A stretch of DNA of 64,000 nucleotides from NCBI GenBank assembly GCA_016214745.1, contig JACRNW010000008.1:14512-78511 (forward strand), read 5' to 3'. A program made the position numbers. Origin of the DNA: Candidatus Falkowbacteria bacterium. Lineage in GTDB: Bacteria; Patescibacteriota; Patescibacteriia; XYB2-FULL-38-15. Positions 54,001 through 57,000 of the stretch are shown piece by piece. Position 1 is the first letter of the stretch, and each line of letters starts with the position of its first letter.

Positions 54001-57000
54001 GGATTTTTCCGCGGCCAAATTTGTCCTTTTCAGCGTAACCCAAGCCCAAAATATACTTTTGGAGATGGGATAATTTCATACCCCGTTAGAAGTCTGTCTC
54101 TTGGTAAATTTATTCTATTTACCATTAAAACAGGCTTATTTCACTTAACCCCGTTTTGTTGCATAGAAAAATTTTTATTCAAAATTTTTCGTCAAGGACT
54201 TCTAACGGGGCATATATTAATGATAACAAAAAAATGGCTCTTTGTAAACAAAAAGGACAGTCCTTCTGTATGCCAAAGGACTGTCCTTAAAAACAATTTT
54301 CCTTTTTAACTAATTTTATTTAAATCTCCGTTCAAAACCGTTGGCTGCATGGCAATAATTTCATCTTTATAACCCATTTCCGGAATTGGATTTAAAAGAA
54401 AAATTTTTTTATTCAAAATATAAGCAAAACCAATTTCCATCAAGGTATTGCCGCCAATATAATTTGGGATTCCATTTTTATCAAAATTACAAACGAGTAC
54501 GGCATCGCCACTTTTAATACAATCGTACCACCATTTGATAAAATTATGTTCCCTCTTTATTTCAGCATGATTCGCAGATATTCCATTAATTAATTCTTTG
54601 GCGGTGCCATCGGCAATACCGAACATATCTTTGTGCATCATGGGTTCATGTCTCATCTCTTTCAACTCATGGTAAATTTCAACAAGTTTTTCTGCGAATT
54701 TTACACTTCCACAAATTGTGATTTTCATATTATTTTTCCAGCACTTTAATGTGCGCTTCTTTCAATTGTTCTTCTGGCAATTCAGACGGCGCGCCCATCA
54801 TTAAATCGCGGGCATCGGAAGTTTTTGGAAAAGCAATTACTTCGCGGATATTCGGCTCGCCGGCAAAAATCATGGCCAAGCGATCTAAACCTGGAGCAAT
54901 GCCGCCGTGGGGCGGAGCGCCATAAGTAAAGGCCTCAAACATATGGCCAAAACGCGCTTCCGCGTCATCCTTACCAACGCCGAGCAACCGGAAAATTTTT
55001 GATTGTAAATTTCGATCATGAATTCTAATACTTCCGCCGCCCACTTCATACCCGTTTAAAACCAAATCGTAAGCATAGGCTCGAACATCAAGCGGGTGTT
55101 CATCAAGCATTTCAATATCCTCCTTATGCGGCATAGTAAAAGGATGGTGCGAGGAAACTAATTTCTTTTCCGTCTCCGACCATTCAAAAAGCGGAAAATC
55201 AATTACCCAGCAAAAAGCTAATTCATTTTTATCATTTTTGTCTTTTCGCAAATCCGGTTTGTCGGTTTTGTATTTTTTTATGGCCTCATCGTAAGTCAAA
55301 ACCAGAAATGGCTTTTTCTGGATTTTCTTTTCCGGCGCCACAACTTTCGCCAAATGAATCATCATCTCTTCGGTCAATTTCATCACATCTTCCTGATCTA
55401 CAAAAGACATTTCCATATCAATCTGAGTAAACTCTGGTTGGCGGTCGCCGCGTTGATCTTCATCGCGAAAACATCTCGCAATTTGAAAATATTTTTCAAA
55501 ACCGGCTACCATCAATAACTGTTTAAATTGCTGAGGTGACTGCGGCAGAACATAAAATTTCCCCGGATGAAGTCTTGAGGGAACCATATATTCCCGTGCT
55601 CCCTCGGGTGTGCCCTTGGTGATATATGGCGTTTCAATTTCCGCAAAACCCCTCTCGTGCAAAAAATTCTTGATTTCATTTAGCATCTGGCTGCGCAATA
55701 AAATATTTTTTTTCATCCGTTCGCTTCGTAAATCAAGATATCTGTACTTCATTCGCAATTCTTCATTCACGGGCGCCGTATCCTTATCAATTTCAAAAGG
55801 TAAAGTTTTTGATTCGTTCAAAATTTCTAATTTTTTTGCCTCCATTTCCACCATGCCGGTCAGTAATTTTGGATTGACCATTTTCTCCGGCCGTTTATTC
55901 ACTTTCCCGGTAATGGCCACAACAAATTCTGACCGCAACTTATCGGCCAACGCCATAAAATCTTTATCTTTAGAAGCAAAAACCACCTGAATCAAACCTG
56001 TCGCGTCGCGGAGATCAATAAAAATAATTTTTCCCATATCGCGGCGAACGTGGATCCAACCCTTGAGAAGAACTTCTTCGCCAATTTTATTAACTGTGTC
56101 TTTTATAAGTGTACGAGTCATAAATAATATTTATGGTCTTAATCTATTAATCATTCTGGGAAAAGGAATAGTCTCACGAATATGATGAATGCCGCACATC
56201 CAGCCGGTAATGCGTTCCAATCCATAACCAAAACCAGAATGCGGGACCGAACCATATTTTCTTAAATCCAAATACCATTCAAAATCGGCAAGTGGCATTT
56301 TTTCCTCCTTCATCCGCGCAAGCAACAAATCATAATTATCTTCACGCTCCGAACCGCCGATAATTTCTCCATGGCCTTCCGGCGCGATTAAATCCGAGCC
56401 CAAAACCAAATCGGGATTTTGCGGATCGCGTTTCATATAAAATGCTTTGATTTGCCGCGGCCACTTTTCCACAAAAATCGGCACGTCAGAATCTTGAGTC
56501 AGTAATGTTTCGTCGTCAGCTCCCAAATCTTCGCCATCTTTAATATCAGAACCGAGCGCTTGAACTTTTTTAATCGCTTCTGTATAAGTTATCCGGCCAA
56601 ACGGCGCTTGAACTTTTTCTAATTTTGAAATATCGCGCTCCAAAATTTCCAATTCTTTTCTATTTTTTTCTAAAACTTTTTTCACAATATGACAAATCAA
56701 TTCTTCCTGAATTTTCATGTTACCTTCGTGGTTTACAAAAGCCGCTTCCGCATCCATCATCCAAAATTCCGTGAGGTGCCGGCGGGTTTTTGATTTTTCC
56801 GCCCGGAAAGTCGGACCAAAATCAAAACATCGGCCAAAACTAAAAACCGCGGCTTCAAGATAAAGTTGTCCCGATTGCGCGAGATAAGCTTTGCCCAAAT
56901 CAAAATATGGAACTTCAAACAAAGTCGTTGTCCCCTCGCAGGCAGTCGGCGTCAAAATCGGCGTGTCAATTTTTATAAAACCATTTTGATTAAAATATTC

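Follow-up and report, generated by a model that had tools for sequence, protein, structure and literature searches.

The genomes of Patescibacteria are generally regarded as small, streamlined and poor in mobile elements. Among the short palindromic elements of other bacteria, Correia/NEMIS of Neisseria, RUP and ERIC resemble the family described here in their size (about 60-170 bp), their terminal inverted repeats and their lack of an ORF, and also in target-site duplication, many copies, position close to genes, transcripts with long hairpins, and filled and empty sites between relatives. The piggyBac and IS1380 transposons have terminal repeats of about 13 bp that start with C and make a 4-bp AT-rich duplication (TTAA in piggyBac, 4-5 bp in IS1380). 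REP/REPIN sequences are mobilised by RAYT, are not known to make a target duplication, have a GTAG-type head and are only intergenic. Rickettsia palindromic elements (RPEs) are selfish palindromes inserted in frame in protein genes, including essential ones, and translated as an extra peptide (PMC10969869).

Two segments of the window analyzed here (the whole stretch of DNA, 64 kb) had been presented in a preliminary description as palindrome-bounded elements seated on start codons, and read either as a mobile element or as a regulatory RNA hairpin. Both are very probably copies of a MITE-like non-autonomous transposon with 13-bp terminal inverted repeats and a 4-bp target duplication. What appeared to be an odd "regulatory palindrome" would be two transposon insertions on start codons that left the genes intact. 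The element family is apparently undescribed and is dense in Patescibacteria.

Arms, duplications and start codons of the two window copies

Both segments are bounded by exact 13-bp inverted arms, CCCCGTTAGAAGT and its reverse complement ACTTCTAACGGGG. In copy 1 (130 bp) the arms lie at 54081..54093 (+) and 54198..54210 (-) and enclose an interior of 104 nt (54094..54197) without an open frame for a protein; in copy 2 (113 bp) they lie at 61221..61233 (+) and 61321..61333 (-) around 87 nt (61234..61320). A window-wide arm search that tolerated 2 mismatches returned these four matches only, confirming the terminal inverted repeats originally reported at both places, and the two interiors are indeed unrelated. 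An apparent CTTCTAAC at 45059, after tRNA-Met, has no arm partner and was dismissed as a coincidence.

An independent repeat search gave 17-nt arms with 94% complementarity at both copies. The lone "mismatch" arises because the outer bases belong to a direct repeat and not to the inverted repeat. This 4-bp direct repeat, CATA on the plus strand and TATG on the gene strand, surrounds each copy: its gene-proximal and distal occurrences, both assigned to the minus strand, are at 54077..54080 and 54211..54214 for copy 1 and at 61217..61220 and 61334..61337 for copy 2. The two downstream genes, a 98-aa ORF without a Pfam match (53783..54079, -) and adk, encoding an adenylate kinase identical to a Candidatus Falkowbacteria protein (60578..61219, -), begin at an ATG immediately after the arm, and these start codons (54077-54079 and 61217-61219, both -) lie inside the gene-proximal duplications. 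The ATG that the preliminary description had counted as part of the repeat belongs, in both genes, to the direct repeat and not to the palindrome. It is the duplicated TATG target that brings the arms exactly onto start codons. The two copies would have inserted at the start-codon-bearing TATG of the 98-aa gene and of adk, each insertion duplicating 4 bp of target and bringing in a variable, non-coding, hairpin-rich interior. Since the duplication restores TATG on the gene side, the ORF stays intact, and a second TATG remains at the far end.

The interior of copy 1 contains a partial arm, CCCCGTT (54149-54155), and an A/T hairpin, GAAAAATTTT/AAAATTTTTC (54166-54190), which is common to a subfamily in Patescibacteria (loci L015, L017, L080, L078 and others of the public-genome scan described below). 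In copy 1 the sole open frame, 121 codons long, runs along the non-gene strand. Copy 2 is interrupted by stops in all frames, and its interior resembles those of L066 and L092 in sharing a GGCTTCGCCTT core.

Empty sites and dispersed copies in public genomes

Comparison with orthologous loci lacking the element, as the preliminary description had suggested, yielded exact empty sites for both copies. The metagenome contig L121 is syntenic with the copy 1 locus (aspS, asnS and an ortholog of the 98-aa ORF with 90% identity), and its sequence GGGATAATTTCATA|TATTAATGATA is what remains of the window sequence once the element and one CATA are removed; ahead of the 98-aa gene it reads TTTCATA|TATTAATG. 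The single CATA there identifies the repeats on both sides of copy 1 as target-site duplications. For copy 2, loci L127 and L128 read GGGTTTTATGAATT|TATG|ATTAAGATG upstream of adk (junction letters TGAATT|TATG|ATTAAG), with a single TATG. These empty sites are equally compatible with loci that were never invaded and with precise excision. Loci L122 and L124 have an adk-upstream copy without the 5' arm. A terminator-like hairpin after a 93-aa ORF (61347..61373, -) is conserved in L122, L124, L127 and L128 and lies 11-12 nt from the adk ATG in the empty sites; at copy 1, an intrinsic-terminator-like hairpin of the upstream 140-aa gene (54253..54288, -) marks the upstream edge of the invaded intergenic region.

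A scan of public genomes gave at least 119 loci. Among the matches listed, inverted arm pairs occur in 83 of 119 loci and form 91 elements with interiors of 3-140 nt, a recurrence that excludes chance as the origin of the two window copies. Of 90 listed elements, 50 have identical 4-nt flanks; in 5000 permutations the expectation was 9.1, and no permutation gave more than 20. The last two duplicated bases are biased by the scan pattern (T[AG]CCCC...) itself. The length of the flanking repeat is sharply 4 nt among these matches, and the duplications vary (TTTA, TATG, CTTG, TATA, TCTA, TGAG). All nine checkable TATG-flanked copies lie on real gene starts, among them those of atpG, secE and an M16 peptidase. 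Nested insertions are found in L036 and L038, up to three copies in one 8-kb block (L098) as compared with two in the 64-kb window, and in five pairs of loci a single MAG has copies on separate contigs (L021/L033, L002/L086, L027/L035, L045/L074 and L073/L111).

According to the titles of the MAG records, the hosts of the listed matches are mostly Patescibacteria, and the same 13-bp ends are common to Omnitrophota, Planctomycetota, Deltaproteobacteria, Nitrospirae and others, which makes the family a marker of genetic exchange among co-resident uncultivated phyla. The viral contigs searched contained no long form and one short form, and the element is therefore no feature of phages; a BLAST search of copy 1 against plasmids and phages gave no match. 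In the literature, the only exact-sequence match was an unrelated mouse primer, and keyword searches gave no description of the family.

Inverted repeats, a flanking duplication, empty sites, small size without a transposase ORF and multiple dispersed copies are the hallmarks of a MITE, and all are present here; of the two readings first proposed, the mobile element with target preference is the one borne out. Mobilisation would probably depend on a transposase supplied in trans. Within the 8-kb blocks, a search for second arms up to 3 kb away, with as many as 3 errors allowed, revealed no autonomous partner, and no transposase turned up among the ORFs adjoining unpaired arms or in any locus examined. 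When ORFs of at least 180 aa were clustered across loci, only clusters of T2SS/T4P ATPase size and platform size recurred, and these came from pilin loci. The 4-bp AT-rich duplication and the CC-starting ends resemble those of the IS1380/piggyBac type, and the transposase may be of this kind. The positions at which copies survive (start and stop codons, pilin leaders, in-frame spots) may reflect an AT-rich target preference, probably for TTTA(C), TATG, TATA and CTTG, together with purifying selection; for TATG, the share of tolerated sites in the window is about half. Against the MITE-like reading speak the lack of an autonomous partner in these loci, the interior hairpins described below, and the occurrence of one and the same 13-bp arm in many phyla: in a census of prokaryotic MITEs 97.4% were reported to be confined within genera (PMC11602168).

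Leader RNAs, interior hairpins and in-frame forms

Upstream of copy 1 lies a promoter-like site, TTTACA-17-TGtTATCAT (54220..54248, -), at a distance of 6 nt from the distal ATG. L121 retains this site at its empty locus, there 6 nt upstream of the ATG of the gene itself, a spacing from which a leaderless transcript is predicted, given the transcription start that the site implies (54213 in the window). On the gene strand the distal TATG now provides a decoy ATG followed by CCC CGT TAG. The formerly leaderless mRNA of the 98-aa gene would thus open with a 3-codon decoy ORF (AUG CCC CGU UAG), within a structured leader of 134 nt whose 16-bp stem would hold the true AUG at its foot. As anticipated in the preliminary description, fold prediction pairs the arms in both minus-strand RNAs (-79.9 kcal/mol, z -7.7, and -55.3 kcal/mol, z -4.7).

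Such folds are what an evolved cis-regulatory 5'-UTR hairpin would produce, in which the distal CAU/CCCC pairs with GGGG/AUG and controls translation; the start codon at the stem foot and a stem whose sole non-Watson-Crick position is a G-U on the gene strand also agree with it. The G-U pair, however, follows from the direct repeat, and several points speak against a sequestered Shine-Dalgarno sequence: the GGGG is derived from the element, is missing from the empty sites and stands only 1 nt away from the AUG, and a Shine-Dalgarno sequence is lacking in most genes of the window. Moreover, close relatives have the same genes without the element (L121, L127, L128), the adk-upstream copy of L122 and L124 has lost its 5' arm, and arms of the same sequence are found within ORFs, behind stop codons, on either side of a tRNA and in front of 23S rRNA. 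The element does not keep one orientation to the gene either: its A/T hairpin is on the distal side in the window and in L015, and on the proximal side in L017 and L080. No Rfam 15 model overlapped the elements, either in the window region or in 16 loci, at thresholds as permissive as E <= 1-10; the search returned tRNA, rRNA and sub-threshold noise only. We consider an evolved riboregulator very unlikely and read the predicted arm pairing in the mRNA as a side effect of insertion. The two genes nevertheless offer natural test cases of a stable stem at the AUG of genes without a Shine-Dalgarno sequence, one of them apparently leaderless.

The layout also recalls an invertible promoter, whose interior would be flipped by an invertase to switch the downstream gene on or off. 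In Bacteroides, master invertases act on the same repeats around different interiors, and here too short inverted repeats with different interiors enclose 90-105 bp immediately ahead of a gene. This explanation is extremely improbable in view of the 4-bp direct repeats beside the arms, the exact empty sites and the in-frame copies inside essential genes. No recombinase recurs nearby, adk is unlikely as a phase-variable gene, and the gene strand of copy 1 has no convincing promoter, the only good site being upstream of the element. An element-borne promoter was likewise rejected, since no good sigma-70-like site was seen on that strand inside copy 1 and the orientation of the element to genes varies.

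Apart from the long forms, which are intergenic and have stops in all frames, the family includes short forms that are inserted in frame in long ORFs, among them those for DnaE, SecA, IF-2 and pilin leaders. Among the matches listed, the interior of the short forms is a multiple of 3 in 36 of 51 (p = 6e-8), and all 19 that lie within frames of at least 200 codons are in frame. In DnaE the insert adds 27 residues opposite 2 residues of Taq Pol III alpha (PDB 2hpi). The family tolerates, or exploits, insertion in such proteins and in pilin leader peptides, and it is a source of annotation errors such as false N-termini and "insertions" in conserved proteins. Derivation of the arm from pilin coding sequence (FTPLEV / LLTG beside GFTLIEL) was rejected because only 8 of about 180 arms fit; the pilin-leader copies are better explained by a TTTA(C) target in the G-F-T codons and tolerance of a longer leader.

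Interiors of 27-45 nt, among the matches listed, have exactly two hairpins in 19 of 35 cases and z < -2 in 18 of 35. These hairpins are perfectly paired and unrelated in sequence, even within one MAG. The simple decay of a selfish element would not predict perfect pairing with unrelated sequence, which may indicate that folded DNA or RNA is recognised or that another mechanism is at work. Integron attC sites and IS200/IS605 ends are substrates in the form of folded strands. By analogy, the mobile unit could be a folded single strand (a 13-bp stem and two hairpins in a three-way junction) moved by a structure-recognising recombinase or an HUH-type enzyme, whose staggered cleavage would give rise to the 4-nt flanking repeat. 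Beyond the hairpins, the 3-140 nt range of the interiors, comparable to the variable terminal structure of attC sites, fits this possibility, as does the absence of a DDE transposase near the copies in the loci examined; the arm motifs GTTAGAA / TTCTAAC also nearly match the attC core GTTRRRY / RYYYAAC. Those motifs, however, run in a 5'-3' order opposite to that of attC, and attC, IS200/IS605 and REPINs are not known to make target-site duplications, while a 4-bp duplication is the rule in this family. In-ORF copies showed no clear preference for strand or orientation with respect to the coding strand (10 against 5), and neither an integrase nor an HUH gene is recurrent in the loci, which leaves a folded-strand substrate quite unlikely.

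A wider proposal, unlikely as it stands, is that of structure-dependent mobile hairpins spread across phyla, with a fixed 13-bp stem, covarying perfectly paired hairpins, translation-tolerant ends and perhaps seamless excision, moved by a class of enzymes so far without a known link to elements of this sort. If it were true, seamless excision might make insertions in essential genes or on start codons reversible switches. As to translation, the arms carry a stop codon in one of three frames only, the terminal GGG supplies Gly(-1) of prepilin cleavage sites, and start and stop codons are restored by the duplication.

Comparison with known systems

The MITE-like transposon favored here differs from described families in several respects. 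Its variable 4-bp duplication sets it apart from Correia and IS630-derived MITEs, membership in which was rejected because 4-nt duplications such as CTTG, TCTA and TGAG are found in place of TA. In contrast to MITEs generally, the 13-bp arms are all that the copies have in common, these arms are the same in many phyla, and no parent insertion sequence is known. The arms have a slight similarity to piggyBac or ISEcp1 ends; unlike in piggyBac, the target is not limited to TTAA, and no related transposase with these arms was found. Membership in REP/REPIN is contradicted by the 4-bp duplication, by copies in ORFs and by the lack of a visible GTAG head.

Like attC sites, the elements are imperfect palindromes in which the outer boxes are conserved and the center, of 3 to more than 80 nt, varies and can branch. 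They cannot be assigned to attC, since the order is GTTAGAA ... TTCTAAC on either strand as opposed to RYYYAAC ... GTTRRRY, and they differ further in being isolated, in their 4-bp duplications, in lying in ORFs, and in having no cassette array and no integrase recurrent nearby.

In-frame palindromic insertion links the short forms to RPEs and to QMITE1 of Coxiella. RPEs are unrelated in sequence, occur in different hosts and make inserts of 100-150 nt, compared with about 36-75 nt here. Insertion of the RPE type is thus true of the short forms of the family, whereas the two window copies are long forms outside ORFs, situated on start codons.

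Two elements on start codons and their empty sites

With up to two mismatches allowed, the 13-mer CCCCGTTAGAAGT occurs exactly four times in the window, at 54081-54093 (+) and 54198-54210 (-) in copy 1 and at 61221-61233 (+) and 61321-61333 (-) in copy 2. These arms form two inverted pairs with mutually unrelated interiors (104 and 87 nt, respectively), as the preliminary description had it, and chance is excluded. In minus-strand order, each pair comes after a terminator-like hairpin belonging to the gene upstream and before the ATG of the gene downstream, which by simple ORF calls is a 98-aa ORF (53783-54079, minus) for copy 1 and adk (60578-61219, minus) for copy 2. 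Bases immediately flanking the arms are non-complementary and identical on the two sides (CATA-CCCC...GGGG-CATA in both copies), CATA being TATG on the gene strand. The start codon sits in a 4-bp direct repeat flanking a 13-bp terminal inverted repeat, which is why the 17-nt arms first reported carry a single "mismatch" and why the ATG seemed to belong to the repeat: it does lie within a repeated stretch, but one that is direct and outside the palindrome. An AT-rich imperfect palindrome with 43-nt arms (77% complementary, AAGTTAAAA-like units) is found nearby, between the 98-aa ORF and lon (53689-53788).

The empty site of copy 1, predicted as the sequence minus the element and one CATA, was searched for in the metagenome collection and matched one contig, L121, which is syntenic with the window (98-aa ORF ortholog with 90% identity, then aspS and asnS) and reads GGGATAATTTCATA followed directly by TATTAATGATA, exactly as predicted. 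L121 also has an extra 165-aa gene (1720-2217) between the 98-aa ORF and a 137-aa ORF; the window lacks it, and the intergenic neighbourhood has therefore been rearranged between close relatives. For copy 2, genomic contexts of close Adk homologs were compared; a protein identical to the window Adk is annotated as Candidatus Falkowbacteria. Contigs L127 and L128 (77-80% Adk identity) have a single TATG between GTGTGGGTTTTATGAATT and ATTAAGATG and no element, whereas in L122 and L124 (85-86%) the site is filled, with a degenerate 3' arm ACCTCTAACGGAG and TATG retained and the 5' arm missing. In the latter two (2370-2500 and 2360-2500, respectively) the decayed arm stands beside a different palindrome, ATCTACAAATTACGAAT ... 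ATTCGTAATTCGCAGAT, which may belong to another family of small elements that uses this site. Empty sites are compatible with either no insertion or seamless excision. Since orthologous loci lacking the element give exact empty sites for both window copies, these are best read as insertions with 4-bp target-site duplication, and the adk hairpin is not maintained among relatives.

A family of elements across phyla

We scanned one genome per species with the pattern TRCCCCGTTAGAAGT and obtained at least 119 loci. The pattern has 14 specified bases and one two-fold degenerate position; by our calculation 596 Gb should contain about 2,000 matches by chance, an expectation consistent with the unpaired singletons seen in Bacillus, Psychrobacter and similar taxa. 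An inverted partner lies within 400 bp in at least 83 of these loci, giving at least 91 elements. According to MAG record titles, hosts among the listed matches are mostly Patescibacteria, the others being Omnitrophota, Planctomycetota, Deltaproteobacteria, Nitrospirae, Elusimicrobia, Ratteibacteria and Ignavibacteria. In several MAGs, copies are spread over more than one contig, and one element is nested in another in L036 and L038. Among the matches listed, interiors measure 3-140 nt and identical 4-nt repeats flank 50 of 90 elements (shuffled mean 9.1, maximum 20 in 5000 trials), with a sharp peak at this repeat length. The duplicated tetranucleotides listed vary (TTTA, usually followed by C, is commonest; also TATG, CTTG, TATA and TCTA), with a bias at the last two positions that stems from the scan pattern; the sole match from an unbiased pattern has TGAG. 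No transposase was found among arm partners within 3 kb, recurrent ORFs, ORFs beside unpaired arms or fetched loci.

All nine checkable TATG/CATA-flanked copies among the matches listed coincide with the start codon of a genuine gene. Besides the 98-aa ORF and adk of the window, the genes are atpG (L017), secE (L020) and those for a Clp-type ATPase (L080), an M16 peptidase (L064), a GNAT protein (L023) and a bactofilin-like protein (L078), with the ninth copy in L015. Window genes mostly lack a Shine-Dalgarno sequence (e.g. starts 54728, 56121, 57423 and 60573), GGAGG-like motifs being present at few starts (e.g. 58527, 48421), and the 10-15 nt upstream are A/T-rich. With T at -1 in 40 of 50 long window ORFs, TATG is the usual start context; about 36 TATG are at start codons vs. 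37 in intergenic sequence. The window also contains a single 2947-aa ORF (18050-26893, minus). A gene can tolerate insertion at its start codon since the ATG is restored by the duplication, and the arm puts a TAA in frame two codons ahead of it. Nine out of nine nevertheless exceeds what equal use of tolerated TATG sites predicts (~0.002 by our estimate), so some targeting of start codons is possible.

Copies within genes and at RNA genes

Among the matches listed, the interior is a multiple of three in 36 of 51 short forms (<=60 nt; p = 6e-8), and all 19 short forms inside open frames of at least 200 codons are in frame, translating as ...PVRS...TSNG... or ...PLEV...LLTG...; the third frame through the arms has the stops TAG and TAA. 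In-frame inserts occur, in different uncultivated bacteria, in SecA (L007 1304-1368), IF-2 (L006 2206-2237) and DnaE, the DNA polymerase III alpha (L013 3442-3509), where 27 residues stand opposite 2 of Thermus (Taq) Pol III alpha (PDB 2hpi). Eight listed arms are fused to pilin or pseudopilin N-termini, e.g. KGFT-PLEV...LLTG-FTMVEL (L022 4876-4940, L032 3651-3715, L054 5710-5774, L055 6092-6144, L097 510-580, L014 543-672 and 1247-1376, L098 6018-6148). The insertion point is the TTTA of the G-F-T codons, at the G/FT prepilin cleavage site, and the arm's last codon supplies the preceding glycine, so the only effect of the insert is a longer leader peptide, which is cleaved off. In short pilin forms the ORF reads through, leaving two candidate cleavage sites, and the long forms of L014 and L098 contribute a new ATG and leader peptide.

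Long forms (>60 nt) among the matches listed lack periodicity (13 of 40 multiples of three) and are intergenic, most with stops in every frame. Arms surround a complete tRNA-Pro gene plus ~70 nt in L033 (770-935), and in L107 (4523-4560) they form a perfect 38-bp palindrome ~60 nt upstream of 23S rRNA. In the window, the 24-nt 3' end of a tRNA-Met, AAATCCGGCCCCCGCAACCAAAAA (44783-44806), is repeated 130 nt downstream (44913-44936), ahead of a second tRNA-Met, in a pattern resembling an att-type scar left by integration or excision of an element. An inverton is unlikely, as it predicts neither flanking duplications, empty sites nor in-frame copies.

A folded-strand mechanism is a possible rival for how the element moves. 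Short-form interiors consist of two hairpins with perfect pairing, the first a 7-bp stem closed by a 3-nt loop and the second a stem of 7-10 bp. Different copies have unrelated hairpin sequences, also where both come from a single MAG (L073 4372-4433 vs. L111 2373-2440), and neutral decay of a selfish element would not predict this.

Predicted effects and relation to known elements

A promoter-like site (TTTACA-17-TGtTATCAT) lies upstream of copy 1, 6 nt before the distal ATG, and in L121 the same site precedes the gene's own ATG by 6 nt, the spacing required for a leaderless mRNA. After insertion, the transcript would start AUG CCC CGU UAG, a three-codon decoy, and then cross the element, so that a 16-bp stem has the true AUG at its base. 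Folding of the 5' regions, proposed earlier, predicts this arm stem (z = -7.7 for copy 1, -4.7 for copy 2), which may reduce translation or make the 5' end more stable. In empty sites adk lies 11-12 nt after the terminator, so that transcription of adk probably continues from the secY operon whether the site is filled or empty. An evolved riboregulator hairpin controlling the downstream gene by sequestering SD and AUG, the other reading first offered, has the evidence against it: relatives have empty sites, the GGGG comes from the element and is 1 nt from AUG, identical arms are found within ORFs, behind stop codons and beside RNA genes, the element's orientation to the gene is not constant, arms have decayed in L122 and L124, and Rfam gives no match. 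Nor was a match found in plasmids or phages.

The mobile-element reading, in contrast, is supported by inverted arms, 4-bp duplication, empty sites and many copies elsewhere, which are the hallmarks of a MITE. Integron attC sites share a variable centre and near-matching core motifs with the element, but the two motifs stand in the opposite order and no duplication results from attC recombination; REP/REPIN elements likewise leave none and avoid ORFs, whereas this element has both a 4-bp duplication and ORF copies. Neither identity was retained. The family appears, on present sequence comparisons, to be of the MITE kind and without earlier description; the literature searched gave no paper with the arm sequence or on such an element in these phyla. 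In-frame insertion into genes, as in the short forms, has precedent in Rickettsia palindromic elements and Coxiella QMITE1 (PMC10969869). In a census of prokaryotic MITEs 97.4% were confined within genera (PMC11602168), and ends common to several phyla are therefore unusual.
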